64,000 nt of DNA from Patescibacteria group bacterium (lineage in GTDB: Bacteria; Patescibacteriota; Patescibacteriia; SG8-24): NCBI GenBank assembly GCA_041667185.1, contig JBAYFM010000001.1, positions 32,052 through 96,051 of the forward strand. The letters run 5' to 3'. The translations under genes and the position numbers were made by a program. The notes under the pieces are model-generated. The model saw only the letters and a list, made by a program, of their open reading frames with translations. It ran no database searches and was not told the origin of the DNA. Shown one piece after another: positions 1 to 51,778 of the stretch (the stretch's first letter is position 1; each line of letters begins with the position of its first letter).

Positions 1-164
1 ACCCGGTCGGTTGGAGGTGGTCAAGCAACGCAAGAGGCGTCTGTGGATAGCTGAGTCAGGAGTCAGGCTTGCGGCGGCCGGTGATTTTGACAAAATAGCC
101 CTAAAGTGTTATGGTGATGACACTTTTATTGTCTAGCCCCAGGAGCGGGGATGAGCTCACATCT

Positions 165-908
165 ATGAAAGAACAACTGGAAAAGGACCTGCAACAGATC
201 GGTCTGTCGGAAAAAGAGGCCAAGGTCTACCTGGCGTCTTTGGAGCTCGGTCCGTCGACCGCGCAGACCATCGCCGCCAAGGCCACAGTCAACCGCCCGA
301 CCACTTACGTGATGATCGAGTCGCTCATCAAACGCGGCCTCATGAGCTCGTTCCAGAAAGGGAAGAAGAGGTTTTTTTCTGCTTCTAGTCCTCGACAAAT
401 GGGATATATTATTCAGCAAGAAAAAAATGAGCTCAAAAGAAAGGAACAAATAATTGAGGATATTTCAAAACAATTGAGCAGTGTAATCGATCCGAAGTCA
501 TCAATGCCCACCGTGCAAGTTTTTGAGGGTATTGCCGGTATTCAAGCGGCACAGAGCGATATTTTACAAACAGCTGCCAATGAATTGTTTGAATTGACGT
601 CCATGGATGAGTCTAGACAAATTTTGCCTCTTATTTACGAGAACGATATACGTCGAAAGATATTAGATAAATATAAAATAAAATCTTTATATTCGAGCAA
701 GTTGGGCTCGACCGAGGTAAAACATAAAAATGTCGATTCGAGAATGTTAAGCGATAAGCAAAAAGTCGCGTGTGACGTAATTATCTACGGAACCAAAGTT
801 TTATTGATATCTTACGATGGAAGCGCAAGCTGCGTATTATTGAATGGCCAGAAAATTGCCACAACTTTTAAAACGTTATTTTTGTCACTTTGGGAAAACG
901 CAAAATAA
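165..908 (+). CDS. TrmB-family transcriptional regulator, tandem paralog 1
   Basis: N-terminal winged-HTH of TrmB type (LSEKEAKVYLASLELGPSTAQTIAAKATVNRPTTYVMIESL). ATG at 165 is in frame within track ORF 111..908. The 5' third of the gene is GC-rich and the remainder AT-rich. Confidence 0.6.
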   Translation: MKEQLEKDLQQIGLSEKEAKVYLASLELGPSTAQTIAAKATVNRPTTYVMIESLIKRGLMSSFQKGKKRFFSASSPRQMGYIIQQEKNELKRKEQIIEDISKQLSSVIDPKSSMPTVQVFEGIAGIQAAQSDILQTAANELFELTSMDESRQILPLIYENDIRRKILDKYKIKSLYSSKLGSTEVKHKNVDSRMLSDKQKVACDVIIYGTKVLLISYDGSASCVLLNGQKIATTFKTLFLSLWENAK

Positions 909-909
909 T

Positions 910-1671
910 ATGTCTGTGAAACCATACGAAGCACAATTGAGCAAGTTAGGTTTTTCCGATAAGGAGGCTCGGGTGTATTTAGCTAGTTTGGAGTTGGGAC
1001 CCTCGCCAGTTCAGGCTATAGCACAAAAGGCCGGAGTAAAAAGAGCAACAACGTATGTAATGATTGAGGCGCTACGTGATCGCGGATTAGTTTCAACTTT
1101 TGAAAAGGGGAAGAAGACAATGTTTGTAGCAGAATCACCAGAAAGGTTGATGCACATTCTCGATCAGGAGGGAGAAACGATTATAAATAAAAAACGGCTT
1201 CTAGAAGATTTAATGCCGGATTTGGTTGCATTTCTTCGTGCCGCGGGTGATAGGCCCAACATATTATTTTATGAAGGCATCGAAGGGCTTAAGGCGATTC
1301 ATGAAGACATCCTAAGGACTAACGATAAGACTTTAGAAAATATTGTCGCGCTCGATGATGTATTAAAGGTGGAATCATCGCCGGATGATGTCGCTGTATT
1401 TCGTAATAGTCTTCATAGTAAGGGTATCGCGATTAGAATCCTTTATTCGTCTAAGTCAAAAGAAATTGAGTTACCGTCCAGGTTCTCATCTTGGGTGGTA
1501 AAAAAGATCCCGTACGAAAAAATGCCGCTACATGGTGAGATTACACTTTATGGTGATAAGGTCGCGGCATTTTCCTATAGAGGAAAGATTTTTGGGACTA
1601 TTATCGAAAGTAAGGAAATCGCACAGACTATAAGAGTTTTGTTTGAGTTGGCATGGGCGTCCATAAAATAA
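910..1671 (+). CDS. TrmB-family transcriptional regulator, tandem paralog 2
   Basis: Same N-terminal motif (FSDKEARVYLASLELGPSPVQAIAQKAGVKRATTYVMIEAL). ATG at 910 lies 1 nt after the stop of the previous gene. The whole gene is AT-rich. Confidence 0.6.
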   Translation: MSVKPYEAQLSKLGFSDKEARVYLASLELGPSPVQAIAQKAGVKRATTYVMIEALRDRGLVSTFEKGKKTMFVAESPERLMHILDQEGETIINKKRLLEDLMPDLVAFLRAAGDRPNILFYEGIEGLKAIHEDILRTNDKTLENIVALDDVLKVESSPDDVAVFRNSLHSKGIAIRILYSSKSKEIELPSRFSSWVVKKIPYEKMPLHGEITLYGDKVAAFSYRGKIFGTIIESKEIAQTIRVLFELAWASIK

Positions 1672-1950
1672 AAAAAGCGGCTGCTTGAGTTAGCGCCACT
1701 TTTGCCGAAGAGATTCGAAGTTGGCTAGTTTTATGAGAGGTGGTAGTTAGCTACCACCGGGGCAGTGAGCCACCGGCCGTAGAAGCCAGCGTTGTCGTAT
1801 TGGAAAGAGCCACATTTTGCTACCCTCCGGTCCCCGGAGATGAAAAGGAGATACTGGTGTGGGGACCATGTTGTGAAGATCGTCGTCGACGACTTCCACA
1901 AGACGGCAATATAACATCAGTTCACCAACTTGTCAATAGTCACTGACAAT

Positions 1951-7253: not shown

Positions 7254-7329
7254 TGGAGCCACCTCGGGGAATCGAACCCCGGACCTCTGCTTTACGAAAG
7301 CATTGCTCTACCAGCTGAGCTAAGGTGGC
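7254..7329 (-). tRNA. tRNA-Thr (anticodon CGT), CCA encoded
   Basis: rc folds as a canonical cloverleaf: GCCACCT / TA / GCTC-AGCTGGTA-GAGC / A / ATGCT-TTCGTAA-AGCAG / AGGTC / CGGGG-TTCGATT-CCCCG / AGGTGGC / T / CCA. Anticodon CGU. Confidence 0.9.
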
Positions 7330-10983: not shown

Positions 10984-11280
10984 AGGATATATGGTAACAA
11001 TAGCATTGGCGGAGAAGAAATTGATAGGCCACATCGAAATATCGACTTTCGGATGGTCAAGATATTCCGGATCAGGCTGGCATTGGTGCGCGGAAGCTGT
11101 GAATGATCGGTTGGATTGTCGATCGGGTAGATATCCACAACCCTGTTCCAGTCGATTTTTTGTTGTACTGGTTCAGGGTGGTGGCTCTGGGATCAAAGTT
11201 CATAATACCACCCTCCCCTTGACACATATGAAAAAATGTAATTATAATATTGATATATTCTAATACTGAAGTATTTTTTT

Positions 11281-11586
11281 ATGGTAAAGGCGGAGCTTAA
11301 GTCTTATAGGGATGTTTTGACGAATAAGAAGGTCCGTCATCATGCGCGGATGTTGCGGGCTATTTCTGGCCAGGCTCGTTGGCAGGTGCTGATGTTACTC
11401 CGGAACTCGGAAAATGGCCTTACAACCACGGATATAGCCGCAATTCTTAAGGCTACTCTGTCGCGCGTTTCTCATCAGTTGCGCATTCTTAAGGGTCATG
11501 GTCTCGTGAAAACCCAGCGCTATGGACGCAACGTGGTGTACGCCTTGGCCAACCCGTTGATCAAGGATTACATCGTCCTACCCTAA
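11281..11586 (+). CDS. ArsR/SmtB-family transcriptional regulator
   Basis: Winged HTH (LLRNSENGLTTTDIAAILKATLSRVSHQLRILKGHGLV). An AT-rich divergent promoter region lies upstream (11040-11280). Confidence 0.6.
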   Translation: MVKAELKSYRDVLTNKKVRHHARMLRAISGQARWQVLMLLRNSENGLTTTDIAAILKATLSRVSHQLRILKGHGLVKTQRYGRNVVYALANPLIKDYIVLP

Positions 11587-47410: not shown

Positions 47411-48754
47411 ATGTCAGACGCTGCTGTTACAGCCGAAAATCGCCTCCAAGGGCTGGATTATCTCTCAGAATTGCCCCAGGTCCGGCCGCACAACCACGAA
47501 ACGCGGTTGTTTCCGGATGGTTTTTTGTGGGGCAGCGCGACCTCGGCGCATCAGGTCGAGGGCGGCAATGTGCTGAACGATTGGTACGGATGGGAGAAGA
47601 TCCCCGGGCATATCGTGGACAGGACGGTTTCCGGCAAGGCTTGCGACCACTACCATCGCTACGAACAGGATTTCGATCTGGCCGCGGAGCTCGGTCAGAA
47701 CGCGCACCGCTTGTCGGTGGAATGGTCGCGGCTGGAGCCGCAGGAAGGGCAGTGGGACGTCGACGAATTCGTCCATTACCGGCGAGTGCTCGAATCGCTG
47801 AAACGCCGCGGCATGAAAGTGATGCTCACGGCCTGGCATTTCACGCTGCCGCAATGGTTCGCGGCGCGGGGCGGCTGGCAGGCGCGCGATGCCGTCCGGC
47901 TCTTCTCCAGGTTCGTCGAGAAACTGGCCGCGGAGTACGGCGATCTGGTCGACGTCTGGGTCACGATCAACGAGCCGATGGTCTACCTGTCAAATTCCTA
48001 CACCATCGGCGTCTGGCCGCCGGGCCAACGTTCCGGCTGGTCGACCTTCCGGGTCTTCCAAAAATTGGTCCAGGCGCACCGTGCGGCCTACAAGACCCTG
48101 CATCGCCGCCTCGACCGCCCCGGCCGCCGGGCGCTCGTCGGCATCTCGCAGAACGTGATCACGTTCGAGCCGTACCGCAAAGGCTCGTTGGTCGACGCAG
48201 TGTTCGTCTGGTTCGCGGACCGGGTGTTCAACCGGCAGTTCTTCATCTGGACCAAGGGGCGCCATGATTTCATTGGCATCAATTATTATTTCCATTACCG
48301 GGTCAAATACGTTCCCTGGAAGGTCTCGCAGTTCTTCTACGAGGTGCACACAGAGAACCGCAGCGTGAGCGATCTGGGCTGGGAGATCAATCAGCAGGGC
48401 ATCTTCGAGGCGATCATGAACATGGCACGCTACAAGCTGCCGATCTACATCACCGAGCACGGCGTGGCCAACGCTGACGACAGCAAGCGGCCGCGGCTCC
48501 TGGTCGCCGGCATCATGGAGATCTACCACGCGATTCGCGCCGGCGTGGATGTGCGCGGTTATTTCCACTGGTCGCTCTTGGATAATTTCGAATGGGAAAA
48601 AGGCTACTCCGGCCGTTTCGGCCTCGTGGCCATCGATTACGCTAATGGCCAACGGACGCCACGCCGCAGCGCTTACATCTATCAGGACATCTGCCGGGCG
48701 AACGGTATGCCGCATCAGCTGCTCAAGTTCACGGGGCACGGGATCAGGTGGTGA
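47411..48754 (+). CDS. Glycoside hydrolase family 1 beta-glucosidase
   Basis: FLWGSATSAHQVEGG; TINEPM (acid/base Glu); ITEHGVA (nucleophile Glu). Confidence 0.85.
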   Translation: MSDAAVTAENRLQGLDYLSELPQVRPHNHETRLFPDGFLWGSATSAHQVEGGNVLNDWYGWEKIPGHIVDRTVSGKACDHYHRYEQDFDLAAELGQNAHRLSVEWSRLEPQEGQWDVDEFVHYRRVLESLKRRGMKVMLTAWHFTLPQWFAARGGWQARDAVRLFSRFVEKLAAEYGDLVDVWVTINEPMVYLSNSYTIGVWPPGQRSGWSTFRVFQKLVQAHRAAYKTLHRRLDRPGRRALVGISQNVITFEPYRKGSLVDAVFVWFADRVFNRQFFIWTKGRHDFIGINYYFHYRVKYVPWKVSQFFYEVHTENRSVSDLGWEINQQGIFEAIMNMARYKLPIYITEHGVANADDSKRPRLLVAGIMEIYHAIRAGVDVRGYFHWSLLDNFEWEKGYSGRFGLVAIDYANGQRTPRRSAYIYQDICRANGMPHQLLKFTGHGIRW

Positions 48755-48850: not shown

Positions 48851-50197
48851 ATGAAACTGACGCTCTACGGCGCGGCGCAGGAGGTGACCGGTTCCTGCAC
48901 GCTCATCGATACCGGCCGGACGCGGGTGCTCATCGACTGCGGCCTGTTTCAAGGCGCGTCGGTGGCGCATGAACGCAATCTCGACGAGTTCAAATTCGAC
49001 CCCAAAAGCCTGGATGCCGTCATCCTGACCCACGCCCACATCGATCATATCGGCCGTTTTCCCAGACTGGTCAAAGCGGGTTTTTCTGGCCGCACTTTTG
49101 CCACGCATCCGACCAAGGCGCTGACCAAGCTCATGTGGGTCGACGCGGCCAAGGTCATGAAAGATGACGCCCGACGCCACAAGAAAGAACCGATCTATCT
49201 TCTGGATGACATCTGGCCGGCCTACGAGCTGGTCCATGGCATGCCCTATGACACCGAGATCGCCATCGCCGGTGATTTCAAGTTCCGTTTCCGCGAGGCT
49301 GGGCACATCTTCGGCTCGGCCTTCCTCGAGATCGAAGCGGCCGGCGTCCGGCTGACGGCCTCGGGCGATCTGGGCAATGATAACGTGCCGATCCTGCGGC
49401 CGACCGTCGACGCGGCGCCGTCCGATATCGTGCTGCTCGAATCCACCTATGGCGATCGGCTGCATGACGCGCCGGGCGAGCGGGTGAAGCGGCTCAAGGC
49501 GGCCATTAAGGACACCGTCAAGCGCCAGGGCACGCTGCTTGTGCCGGCTTTTTCGCTCGAACGCACGCAGGAGATCCTCTATGAGTTGAACGGCCTGGTC
49601 GAGAATCATGAAGTGCCGCGGATCCCGGTCTTCCTCGACAGTCCGCTAGCGATCAAGGTCCTGCCGATCTACCACCAGTTCTCGGAATATTACAACCGCG
49701 CGGCCAAGGAGCTCGCCAAGCGCGACAATTTCTTCGATTTCCCCGGACTCAAGGTCACCCGCAAGCCGGACGAGTCCGCCGCCATCTCTTCCGTGGCTCC
49801 GCCCAAGATCATCATCGCCGGCAGCGGCATGATGCATGGCGGGCGCATCATGCATCATCTCGTCGAGTACCTGAACAACGACCGCAACACGCTCGTGATC
49901 GTCGGCTTCCAGTCGGCTGGCACGCTCGGCCGCCAGGTCATGGAGGGCGCGAATCACGTGGTCATCGACCATGAGGAGATCATGGTCCGGGCGAAGGTCG
50001 ACATCATCGGTTCGTATTCGGCGCACGCCGATCAGGCCAAGCTGATCCGCTGGGCGACCGGCGGCAGCGCGCAGCCGAAGAGGATCCTGTTGAACCATGG
50101 CGAACTTTCCGCCATGGAGGCGCTGGCGGATATGCTCAAGGAGCGGCAGGGGATCGATGTCGCCATCCCGTCGCCGGACCAGGAGATTGAGATCTAA
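48851..50197 (+). CDS. beta-CASP family MBL-fold ribonuclease
   Basis: HAHIDHIG (HxHxDH) and a beta-CASP middle region, with C-terminal His/Asp motifs. Confidence 0.7.
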   Translation: MKLTLYGAAQEVTGSCTLIDTGRTRVLIDCGLFQGASVAHERNLDEFKFDPKSLDAVILTHAHIDHIGRFPRLVKAGFSGRTFATHPTKALTKLMWVDAAKVMKDDARRHKKEPIYLLDDIWPAYELVHGMPYDTEIAIAGDFKFRFREAGHIFGSAFLEIEAAGVRLTASGDLGNDNVPILRPTVDAAPSDIVLLESTYGDRLHDAPGERVKRLKAAIKDTVKRQGTLLVPAFSLERTQEILYELNGLVENHEVPRIPVFLDSPLAIKVLPIYHQFSEYYNRAAKELAKRDNFFDFPGLKVTRKPDESAAISSVAPPKIIIAGSGMMHGGRIMHHLVEYLNNDRNTLVIVGFQSAGTLGRQVMEGANHVVIDHEEIMVRAKVDIIGSYSAHADQAKLIRWATGGSAQPKRILLNHGELSAMEALADMLKERQGIDVAIPSPDQEIEI

Positions 50198-50607
50198 TGG
50201 GAATACGTATGAAGTTAAAAAAGATCTCGTATTCAAAATTGAATTCAAGGCAGCGAGAAAATTATAATTTTCAAAAAATTGCCGCGAAATTGGCGGATTA
50301 TGGGTTCAATGCAGTTCGGTTGAGCGATGACTGGCAGGGCGCAGATGCTGTGGCTATCCATGTCGACCAAAAAACTTTTTTGAAAGTCCAGGTTAAGGGT
50401 AGATTTTCGTTCGACAAAAAATATATCGGTAAAAATATCTGGATAGCATTTCATGATAAGGACACAGACACGTATTATCTTTATAATCATGACCGTTTGC
50501 TTAAGAAGCTCCCCGATGTTTTTCGTTATGTGAGTAGGAAAGGGAGTCGAAATACGCCGCATATTTCCGCGGAACATAGACGGGTGTTGGAAGAGTATAA
50601 ATTTTGA
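50197..50607 (+). CDS. Small AT-rich PD-(D/E)xK-fold (UPF0102/YraN-like) nuclease-like protein
   Basis: GADAVAIHVDQKTFLKVQVKGRFS resembles the YraN core GEIDLI..D..LVFVEVKTRRS, with Q in place of the catalytic E. The start overlaps the upstream stop (TAATG). Lys-rich and visibly AT-rich. Confidence 0.4.
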   Translation: MGIRMKLKKISYSKLNSRQRENYNFQKIAAKLADYGFNAVRLSDDWQGADAVAIHVDQKTFLKVQVKGRFSFDKKYIGKNIWIAFHDKDTDTYYLYNHDRLLKKLPDVFRYVSRKGSRNTPHISAEHRRVLEEYKF

Positions 50608-50662: not shown

Positions 50663-51508
50663 TCAGGATTTCAGCGCGGCGTCGATGACGTCGGCGATGG
50701 CCTGATCGCGGCGAATCTGGAGTTCGACTTGCTTTTTCGAGATCAGCACCAACGCATCGGCAGCCTTTTGGCGGATCTCGGCGAGGCCTGAGCCGGCTTC
50801 AGCGAGCCGGTTCAGGTTCAGGAGGCTCAGGAAGTCGAAGTTGCCGTTGAGACTGAGATCGAAGATCAGATCGAGCGTGTCGTCCGGGAGGGTCAGTTCG
50901 ACCTCGATCTTGGCGGCCGTGTCGGCCAGATCGCGGTACTTGTCCAGTTCTTCCTGGAAGTGGCGCAGTCGGCGGTTGACCCGCTGGATCGCTTTCTTGG
51001 CTTCCTCGGTCTCGATATGAGAGAGGGCGCTGACCATCTTGCTCTTCGAGAACAGATCGAACGTCTCGCAATTCGAGGCTTTGTCGACCTCTCGCACGGC
51101 CGTGCTGATGGCGTGGAGCAGACTCTCGGCTGTTGTCGCAGCGTTTGTCGCCAGGATATGGGCGGCGTTCAGACGGGCGAAGTCCGGATCTGTTTTGGCG
51201 AGGTGGTCGATTGCCGCTTTTTTGGCCAGTTCAGCCGCGGTCTCGATCTCTTGCGTGTAGCGCAGAGCGAGTTTGTCGGTCTCGACGGCCTCCGCGACGG
51301 TCCGCTGATAGTCCGCGGTCAACCCTCTGTTGCCGCCGAACCAGCCGGCCAGATACTTCTCGCGAAAACCCATCTTCGAGCGCAGTGCGTCGAGTTCGTT
51401 CTTCAGGCGCGAGCGGTGGCCTTCAGCGCGTTTGAGTTTGCGGCGATATTCTTTTTGGGCGTCGGTCAGCTCCCAGATCCGGCGGCAGAAATCAGCTGTG
51501 AATTCCAT
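50663..51508 (-). CDS. Hypothetical coiled-coil protein
   Basis: AAGGAGG lies 5 nt before ATG 51508. Predicted helical protein; no family assignable. Confidence 0.4.
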   Translation of the reverse strand: MEFTADFCRRIWELTDAQKEYRRKLKRAEGHRSRLKNELDALRSKMGFREKYLAGWFGGNRGLTADYQRTVAEAVETDKLALRYTQEIETAAELAKKAAIDHLAKTDPDFARLNAAHILATNAATTAESLLHAISTAVREVDKASNCETFDLFSKSKMVSALSHIETEEAKKAIQRVNRRLRHFQEELDKYRDLADTAAKIEVELTLPDDTLDLIFDLSLNGNFDFLSLLNLNRLAEAGSGLAEIRQKAADALVLISKKQVELQIRRDQAIADVIDAALKS

Positions 51509-51778
51509 CGGTCGCCTCCTTGGCAAAGAGCGTCGGGATTCGGACAGAAAATCCGGATACCGCAGGATATCGCGCCCGGGGCGTAGTGTCAATTTCGCGC
51601 AGCCGCCGGTCGTAAACACTGAAGAGGGACGCACATCAACAAAAAAATGGCTTATTTCAGCGCCGCCATTTCAACCCCGGGACAGTCCCCAAATTGACAG
51701 ATAGCTCGCGAATGGTTAACGTCGTCCCAGTGGTTCTTTAGAAAATCCGATCCCCATCACCGAACAGGAGACAGAGCC

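Follow-up and report, generated by a model that had tools for sequence, protein, structure and literature searches.

A tandem regulator pair with a composition step inside the first gene

Near the start of the 64-kb stretch of Patescibacteria DNA analysed here (contig JBAYFM010000001.1, positions 32,052–96,051; hereafter, the window) lie two tandem genes, gene 1 (165–908, plus strand, 247 aa) and gene 2 (910–1671, plus strand, 253 aa), which are separated by a 1-nt gap and encode regulators related to the TrmB family. The two proteins are 37% identical over their full length. Apart from the first 69 codons of gene 1 (the head), the pair is strongly AT-rich, and this composition is an old and maintained feature of the locus, not a recent foreign insertion. 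Judged from sequence comparisons, the AT-rich remainder behaves as a replaceable cassette, the relationships of which disagree with those of the flanking genes in three genome pairs, and the head, which is defined by its position, belongs to, and evolves with, the chromosome. The features of the locus are listed below; L numbers denote the loci of relatives.

87–115, plus strand: promoter-like site composed of TTGACA, a 17-nt spacer and TG-n-TATGGT (TG before the −10 hexamer), scoring 10/12 in a consensus scan
103–127, no strand assigned: palindromic operator candidate AAAGTGTTATGGTGATGACACTTTT (AAAGTGT-N10-ACACTTT), with the core AAGTGT-N10-ACACTT at 104–125, overlapping the −10 hexamer
165–371, plus strand: head of gene 1, codons 1–69, winged helix-turn-helix (wHTH; residues 1–73 in the AlphaFold2 model), with host-like GC content at third codon positions (GC3) and fourfold-site use like that of the flanking Mur ligase gene
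165–908, plus strand: gene 1 entire, TrmBL2-like regulator, 247 aa (Pfam TrmB, Foldseek), with the ATG at 165 conserved in L005
372–908, plus strand: cassette part of gene 1, comprising a coiled-coil helix and a phospholipase D (PLD)-like C-terminal domain (C-domain), AT-rich (GC3, 0.38)
372–1671, plus strand: exchangeable AT-rich cassette, gene 1 from codon 70 and the whole of gene 2, where the similarity break coincides with the GC drop
910–1671, plus strand: gene 2, TrmBL2-like regulator, 253 aa, AT-rich throughout (Pfam TrmB; predicted model confidence, pLDDT, 93)

The GC content of 361–1700 is 0.395, compared with a mean of 0.606 (standard deviation, 0.026; minimum, 0.505) for all other 1340-bp windows from position 2100 to the end, which corresponds to z = −8.0. 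In a sliding-window profile, GC content is 0.35–0.44 over approximately 360–1700 and approximately 0.60 in the remaining window. The AT-rich island of the original prediction is thereby confirmed, as is the mosaic nature of gene 1, only the 5′ part of which is host-like: the first 62 codons (a fixed 186-nt head segment) have a GC content of 0.58 and a GC3 of 0.79, and the rest of the gene has values of 0.37 and 0.38, respectively. The GC3 of gene 2 is 0.39–0.40 from end to end. The step in gene 1 lies at 371/372, between ...AAG AAG AGG and TTT TTT..., no more than 12 nt from the coordinate of 360 proposed earlier. The description of the helix-turn-helix (HTH) segments of the two paralogs as near-identical was too strong: they share 67% of their amino acids and 60% of their nucleotides, and their longest identical run is 9 nt. 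Since just 60% of the nucleotides are shared, partial gene conversion between the paralogs, which had been offered as one origin of the mosaic, is excluded. A search of the window's first 20 kb and of 10 kb of upstream sequence (L003), which did not extend to the other 44 kb, revealed no third paralog.

The locus is 100% identical across four assemblies (JGI 3300037810, ENA ERZ27249449, Logan SRR6484324 and Logan SRR18595301). Because these separate assemblies agree across the junctions, the junctions are not assembly chimeras, and the same mosaic is present in dozens of unrelated assemblies. The upstream context obtained from the four assemblies is GC-rich and includes genes for a GT4 glycosyltransferase, NYN, SNase, MreB and other proteins.

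Both proteins matched the Pfam TrmB family (PF01978; E = 3e-14 for gene 1 and 2.5e-14 for gene 2; 53 bits against a cut-off of 25.6), in agreement with the family assignment made earlier. AlphaFold2 models (pLDDT, 93) comprise a wHTH at residues 1–74, a helix at 76–108 and an alpha/beta domain at 116–245, and the GC step maps to the second strand of the wing, just ahead of the coiled coil. In sequence-profile searches of the PDB, the best match was TrmBL2 (5BOX/5BPD; E = 2.6e-8) over the full length (residues 17–253 against 18–262). TrmBL2 was also the best Foldseek match (5BPD/5BOX; E = 9e-15; approximately 270 columns), followed by TrmB (3QPH), and the C-domain matched the PLD-family nucleases Nuc and NucT as well. 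The proteins thus have the TrmBL2-like architecture, namely a wHTH, a coiled coil and a PLD-like C-domain in approximately 260 aa, without a sugar-binding domain. They do not qualify as TrmBL2 orthologs, because gene 1 scored 24.4 bits against a cut-off of 530 for the NCBIfam TrmBL2 equivalog (NF041141) and gene 2 gave no match. Nor are they sugar-sensing TrmB or TrmBL1 proteins: at 247 and 253 aa they are shorter than the approximately 340 aa of those families, their NCBIfam scores were 24–35 bits against cut-offs of 600–650, and TrmB 3QPH aligns with the family profile at positions 5–140 only. Both are new members of a TrmB/TrmBL2-like family, which counts 512 relatives among GTDB species representatives. 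A comparison with defence systems (PADLOC) returned only a resemblance of the wHTH region to Csa3/CasR (E = 1e-3 to 9e-7), and a defence function was rejected.

TrmBL2 (TK0471/PF0496; PDB 5BOX, 5BPD, 5BQT and 5BPI), a chromatin protein and global repressor of Thermococcales, has the same full-length architecture as the proteins described here (a TrmB-type wHTH, a long coiled-coil helix and a PLD-like C-domain in approximately 250–264 aa). The identity is just 21–24%, however, and the present proteins are bacterial tandem paralogs with a specific palindrome at their own promoter. Archaeal TrmBL2 binds both coding and intergenic DNA and lacks a sugar-binding domain (PMC3031468). It is an abundant protein that coats DNA in a largely non-specific way; the data here consist of a specific palindrome at the promoter of the pair and of half-sites that are not enriched in the cassette. 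With TrmB and TrmBL1 (3QPH, 2F5T), the proteins share the N-terminal TrmB wHTH and the coiled coil, but the C-terminal sugar-binding sub-domain is missing. Since the TrmBL2 architecture lacks that domain, the sugar-sensing label does not transfer. A role in sugar metabolism, connected with a glycoside hydrolase family 1 (GH1) gene of the window, had been suggested; this gene lies at 47411–48754, 46 kb away, with no operator nearby, and the sole operator in the window is that of the promoter of the pair itself, so a sugar regulon including GH1 was rejected.

Conservation of the mosaic, the head and the operator

Scans of GTDB species genomes and JGI metagenomes yielded at least 160 further loci, all in Patescibacteria; in the metagenome scan, no relative was closer than 62% among the matches listed. 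GC-rich hosts contributed 27 tandem pairs (flank GC, 0.56–0.68), or 26 after one duplicate contig was dropped. L006, L007 and L008, the proteins of which are 48–70% identical, hold the pair at the same syntenic place, in the order GT4, pair, CDP-alcohol phosphatidyltransferase and trypsin-like genes, Mur ligase, bPH_2, DivIC and SurA, with a GC3 of 0.33–0.51 in the pair and 0.73–0.92 in the flanks. The pair is syntenic and has the same composition in L006–L010, L070, L091 and others. Averaged over the 27 pairs, GC3 is 0.77 in the first 66 codons of gene 1, 0.42 in the rest of the gene and 0.44–0.49 in gene 2. The mean profile runs at 0.81–0.90 over codons 19–60, falls over codons 61–78 through 0.71, 0.61 and 0.49 to 0.44 and remains at 0.33–0.46 up to the stop codon. 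The GC3 of the head exceeds that of the rest of gene 1, as well as that of the gene 2 head, in all 26 pairs. Single-copy homologs, by contrast, follow the GC content of their hosts and reach a GC3 of 0.63–0.70 in GC-rich ones (L026, L031 and L165).

At fourfold sites in the AT-rich parts, eight group A lineages (the group that holds the window) show an identity of 0.28–0.30, against a random expectation of 0.26–0.28, indicating saturation. Fourfold sites that are saturated, with a GC3 near 0.4 in genomes at approximately 0.8, imply that the AT-rich composition is a maintained local equilibrium. Every synonymous site has been substituted many times over, and the signature of an import that had yet to ameliorate would have faded long since. 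The original prediction had ascribed the island to recent horizontal acquisition followed by amelioration, and had itself named vertical conservation of an AT-rich pair of the same composition in relatives as the observation that would count against transfer. Such conservation is what the relatives display, with the mosaic in 26/26 GC-rich-host pairs and the same synteny, and the proposal of recent acquisition is accordingly abandoned. Tandem pairs also occur in low- or mid-GC hosts (L047, 0.45; L046, 0.53; L028 and L129, 0.47–0.48). Because some group C cassettes are partly GC-enriched (GC3, 0.58–0.74 in lineages such as L017 and L018), AT-richness is not strictly required.

The only close relative of gene 1 among the matches listed was a 1278-bp fragment, L005, with 80% DNA identity (93% in the head and approximately 75% in the rest). 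Its reading frame (L005:578–1153) contains an in-frame stop at codon 192, within the AT-rich part, and the head is intact; the stop could reflect a pseudogene, a truncated isoform or a sequencing error on the 1.3-kb contig.

A neighbour-joining (NJ) tree, combined with typing of the domains by hidden Markov models (HMMs), divided the pairs into three deep groups. In group A, which includes the window, a g1-type gene is followed by a g2-type gene. In group B, the first gene combines a g1-type head with a g2-type C-domain and is followed by a gene that is weakly g1-like. The first gene of group C is of a third type, and the pair occupies a different genomic context there, which is syntenic within the group. 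The C-domain of gene 2 is of the type seen in single-copy homologs. In each of the three groups it is the first gene, regardless of its type, that has the GC-rich head. When GC3 was related to host GC, the slope was 1.74 for the head, like that of ordinary genes (1.4–1.6), and 0.27–0.56 for the cassette parts; taken together, head and single-copy homologs gave slopes of about 1.4–1.7. Across the loci of groups A and B, amino acid identity in the head is 76–97% and follows that of the flanks. These comparisons are the basis for assigning the head to the chromosome. They lend partial support to the earlier suggestion of a native HTH fused to a foreign effector domain: the head does evolve with the chromosome and the rest is exchangeable, but the architecture is recurrent and family-wide, not the result of a single event.

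The promoter sequence is conserved in the 80%-identical relative L005 and in other group A and B loci. Alternative ATG codons at 111 and 117 fall within the −10/operator region, and the ATG at 165 is the one kept in L005. The operator core has a single perfect copy in the window. It is found exactly once in 30/30 tandem-pair loci, invariably a short way ahead of the first gene, and is absent from all 138 other loci. The promoter hexamer that it overlaps differs between groups: −10 in A and B, −35 in C. From this distribution we infer that the conserved head binds the palindrome and represses its own promoter. Half-site hexamers were not enriched in the cassette relative to codon shuffles, and the idea of the cassette as an array of operator decoys was rejected.

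Additional motifs were observed around the operator. TGTCAA or TGTCA-N6-TGTCA motifs, which resemble half-sites, lie 60–90 nt upstream of the operator in L007, L010, L070, L034, L008, L009 and L091; they are a recurrent feature of the sequence ahead of the promoter in groups A and B and may be auxiliary binding sites. A perfect DnaA box, TTATCCACA, occurs approximately 110 nt upstream of the first gene in L011, L015–L018, L023 and L102. In most group C loci it stands at a fixed distance upstream of the operator, and 20 kb of sequence usually contain no other. A copy with one mismatch, CTATCCACA, is present in the window on the minus strand at a comparable position (42–50). One DnaA box is conserved in group C loci, and none is perfect in groups A and B. 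This arrangement may provide a DnaA input to the promoter. A replication origin or DNA-unwinding element was rejected as an explanation of the AT-rich region, the DnaA boxes being unclustered and no GC-skew switch being present.

Proposed replacement of the cassette and possible causes of its AT-richness

In three genome pairs, the cassette diverges far more than the sequences on either side (flank identities from tblastn with L007 proteins). Between L007 and L070, the flanking proteins are 71–89% identical (Mur ligase, 89%; GT4, 83%; SNase, 79%; bPH, 77%; CDP-alcohol phosphatidyltransferase, 71%) and the heads are 93% identical, whereas the C-domains share just 21–29% (gene 1) and 31–32% (gene 2). 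The values for L090 and L168 are 80% for GT4, 97% for the head, 20–22% for the gene 1 C-domain and 28–35% for the gene 2 C-domain. For L006 and L091 they are 83% (Mur ligase), 80% (bPH), 71% (CDP-alcohol phosphatidyltransferase), 95% (head), 38% (gene 1 C-domain) and 42% (gene 2 C-domain). The L007 cassette is 39–47%/54–71% identical to those of the window, L006, L008 and L009, although their flanks are just 33–65% identical to L007. The L006 cassette is 49/66% identical to that of the window, although the Mur ligases are 71% identical. In all three genome pairs, a genome that is further removed has the more similar cassette. Replacement is therefore preferred over acceleration in place alone, which would not account for cassettes that resemble those of more distant genomes most.

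The nucleotide alignments place the boundaries of the exchanged segment. In L007/L070, L090/L168, L091/L006 and window/L005, identity is 0.8–0.9 from the promoter to approximately +200 nt of gene 1 and then drops to 0.35–0.55, exactly where the GC content falls; similarity resumes approximately 60 nt past the stop codon of gene 2. The junction corresponds to the last conserved peptide of the wing, GKK-x-[FY][FY], which is the expected point of resolution for a crossover between divergent alleles. Low-GC replaceable loci between conserved flanks are familiar from O-antigen gene clusters and the domain-shuffled hsdS specificity genes, which share with the present locus flanks that serve as crossover sites, deeply divergent alleles, relationships that are discordant with the flanks, and a lower GC content. 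Unlike in those loci, what varies here is a transcription-factor module with a 5′ junction that falls within an ORF, at a domain boundary, and there is no surface or restriction function pointing to an obvious diversifying pressure.

As a whole, these observations are best accommodated by a two-module, probably autoregulated TrmBL2-like operon, in which an AT-rich cassette is repeatedly replaced and lies outside the force that favours GC in the rest of the chromosome; we give this reading a probability of roughly 55%. The first module, made up of the promoter, the AAGTGT-N10-ACACTT operator and the initial ~69 codons of gene 1, has the host composition and evolves with the chromosome. The second is the 1.3-kb AT-rich cassette, encoding the coiled coil and C-domain of gene 1 and the whole of gene 2, of which there are several old and highly divergent types. 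Cassettes would be replaced repeatedly between related genomes by homologous recombination, with the 5′ crossover in the GKK-x-FF wing motif of the head and the 3′ crossover just past the stop codon of gene 2. The head would bind the palindrome and repress its own promoter, and the two proteins would oligomerise through domains encoded in the cassette, so that those parts would travel together. The dynamics of the cassette would thus be decoupled from those of the host chromosome, and the cassette would stay AT-rich: a weak GC-favouring force, whether GC-biased gene conversion or selection, would act poorly on allele classes that do not recombine and are periodically replaced, leaving the cassette close to the mutational equilibrium that is typical of low-GC Patescibacteria and leans towards AT. 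Mutation in bacteria is biased towards AT (PMC2936529), and GC content is higher in those bacterial genes that show evidence of recombination (PMC4450053).

Codon and amino acid usage agree with this proposal. Fourfold sites of the cassette (A,.25–.28; C,.20–.22; G,.20–.22; T,.31–.32) are used as in single-copy homologs of low-GC hosts, and those of the head as in the Mur ligase gene. The fraction of FYMINK amino acids in the cassette (0.29–0.32) is nearer to that of low-GC-host homologs (0.28–0.34) than to that of GC-rich single copies (0.22–0.24). The cause of the lasting AT-richness is itself a matter of inference; a population-genetic one is favoured because the composition changes where the recombination boundary lies and not at an expression feature, and because the cassette has the composition of low-GC homologs and some group C cassettes reach a GC3 of 0.58–0.74.

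Several points weigh against this reading. The observed GC3 offset is large (approximately 0.35–0.4), and a model with a weaker force predicts a partial effect only. Near-identical cassettes were not found in different hosts, and replacement is deduced from disagreement among deep lineages in NJ trees, identity matrices and HMM scores, none of which is a likelihood test. The within-population comparison covers no more than four assemblies, all identical. The lineages share phylogeny and fall into three deep groups, so that 26/26 overstates the number of independent observations. In group C, gene 2 can be as conserved as the flanks (79–83% against 73–85%) and is still GC-poor; because this flank-like gene stays GC-poor, exchange alone does not explain the composition. 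Finally, operator binding and hetero-oligomerisation are predictions.

A tentative and more specific version, which we consider possible but do not favour, is a regulator with a fixed head and a swappable body, in which the anchored operator and head are recombined within the ORF with ancient circulating sensor or partner cassettes. If this were true, two base-composition equilibria would persist within one gene, and the locus would be a natural experiment in which high GC is kept by a recombination-dependent force (GC-biased gene conversion), not by mutation bias; alternatively, AT-richness would be a selected part of the control mechanism.

Selection of AT-richness for gene control is also an explanation in its own right, which we regard as rather improbable. 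According to this explanation, slow or conditional translation of A/T-ending codons in a genome with a GC3 near 0.85, an unstable AU-rich mRNA or binding by a nucleoid protein, possibly the TrmBL2-like products themselves, would keep the dosage of the regulators low or conditional. In Streptomyces, for example, some regulators are limited by the rare TTA codon, which is read only by the bldA tRNA. Selection would fit a composition that has outlasted the saturation of synonymous sites, hardly depends on host GC and is confined to tandem pairs, single-copy homologs in GC-rich hosts (L026, L031 and L165) being GC-rich. The region also holds 10 promoter-like sites against 3.4 expected, and such a load of cryptic promoters is what silencing proteins act on elsewhere. 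The chromatin role of archaeal TrmBL2 on coding and intergenic DNA (PMC3031468) points the same way. However, selection on expression would not by itself put the boundary at a recombination break, and the GC step is such a break and a break in similarity, with the head of the same mRNA being GC-rich. Moreover, some lineages tolerate a cassette GC3 of 0.58–0.74, fourfold-site use is indistinguishable from that of ordinary low-GC Patescibacteria genes and reveals no special codon preference, operator half-sites are not enriched in the cassettes, and the promoter is near-consensus, so that low expression is not obviously the design.

Still less likely is continuing import, in which low-GC Patescibacteria or an AT-rich mobile element would supply the cassette again and again, more quickly than it can ameliorate, so that each lineage would show a newly arrived foreign segment on its native head. 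Replacement events are evident, the cassette resembles homologs from low-GC hosts in codon and amino acid composition, and a few of the tandem pairs are in low- or mid-GC hosts (L047, L046, L028 and L129). In addition, L014, L017 and L018, where gene 2 tracks the flanks, are among the loci with the highest cassette GC3 (0.53–0.74), as if they were ameliorating. These points are offset by the relationships of the cassettes: the nearest relatives of every cassette are cassettes at the same locus in other GC-rich hosts, the C-domains are at most ~35% identical to those of any cassette from a sampled low-GC host, and the divergence of group A cassettes is roughly that of their flanks (window/L007, 51/63% against 46–62%). 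No IMG/VR relatives or PHROG matches were detected, and no integrase, adjacent tRNA gene (the nearest is at 7254) or flanking direct repeats were found, so that a phage or mobile-element origin was rejected. Atypical base composition and codon use are shared with classical genomic islands, but the pair is syntenic in relatives with the same composition, shows no decay towards the host and lacks the signatures of mobility.

A single recent horizontal acquisition, after which the 5′ third of gene 1 was ameliorated or underwent conversion by a native copy, would explain the atypical composition (z = −8) and the sharp intragenic boundary, but is highly improbable given the same locus, composition and boundary in 26/26 GC-rich-host pairs from three deep groups, the saturated synonymous sites, paralog heads that share 60% of nucleotides and the lack of signs of a mobile element.

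The repertoire of transcription factors in Patescibacteria is very small, and the TrmBL2-like family is widespread in these bacteria. A full-text literature search found no paper naming TrmB together with Patescibacteria or the candidate phyla radiation, and the literature that we searched contains no description of a transcription factor in which a conserved step in composition within the gene is linked to the exchange of a cassette. On the two-module reading, one transcription factor with a clean predicted operator would evolve as two modules with different inheritance. The same mutations strike both halves of gene 1, yet GC3 settles at approximately 0.8 in one and 0.4 in the other, and a sharp, long-lived GC step in one reading frame would offer a direct handle on what keeps bacterial genomes GC-rich. 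The locus also calls for caution in annotation, since its atypical composition would lead to a false call of recent horizontal transfer, and the name TrmB suggests a sugar-sensing function that does not apply.

Other observations in the window and upstream

A 420-bp spacer (1672–2094) separates gene 2 from the Mur ligase gene; at that place, the minus strand of relatives encodes a CDP-alcohol phosphatidyltransferase and one or two trypsin-like proteases. The spacer, which has no Pfam or Rfam match, contains a strong hairpin with a T-tract at 1947–1985 (dG −24.5; z = −6.1) and a near-consensus promoter-like sequence on the minus strand (TTGACA-17-TATATT at 1936..1908), aimed at the 3′ end of gene 2. 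The spacer may be what a deletion left behind, with antisense transcription now starting from it. No structured RNA in 1–2300 matched Rfam at the gathering score; the NsiR4 model reached 20 bits, against a threshold of 40, on the terminator hairpin.

Upstream of the pair, at a distance of 2–5 kb (L003:4891–7481), are three genes of moderately low GC content, encoding a 23S rRNA IVP-like protein (0.52), an NYN protein (0.51) and a hypothetical 76-aa protein (0.49), which are probably accessory genes.

Further along the window, a second strongly AT-rich gene (50197–50607; 136 aa; GC, 0.39; GC3, 0.42), with a weak sub-threshold match to DUF4365, sits between two GC-rich genes, an ORF resembling beta-CASP/metallo-beta-lactamase (MBL) proteins (48851–50197) and an ORF at 50663–51634. 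An AT-rich intergenic region (11035–11586; GC, 0.41) lies ahead of a small gene for an ArsR-family wHTH regulator (11281–11586; Pfam HTH_5, E = 8e-11; intermediate GC3, 0.60), the second case of a regulator lying in sequence of low GC content. Upstream of an mraZ-like ORF (MFIGEYQHTIDEKGRL...), the segment 63540–63610 contains tandem GTGGGGATAAG repeats and a perfect DnaA-box sequence, which together are probably the usual MraZ-binding repeats of a dcw-cluster promoter.

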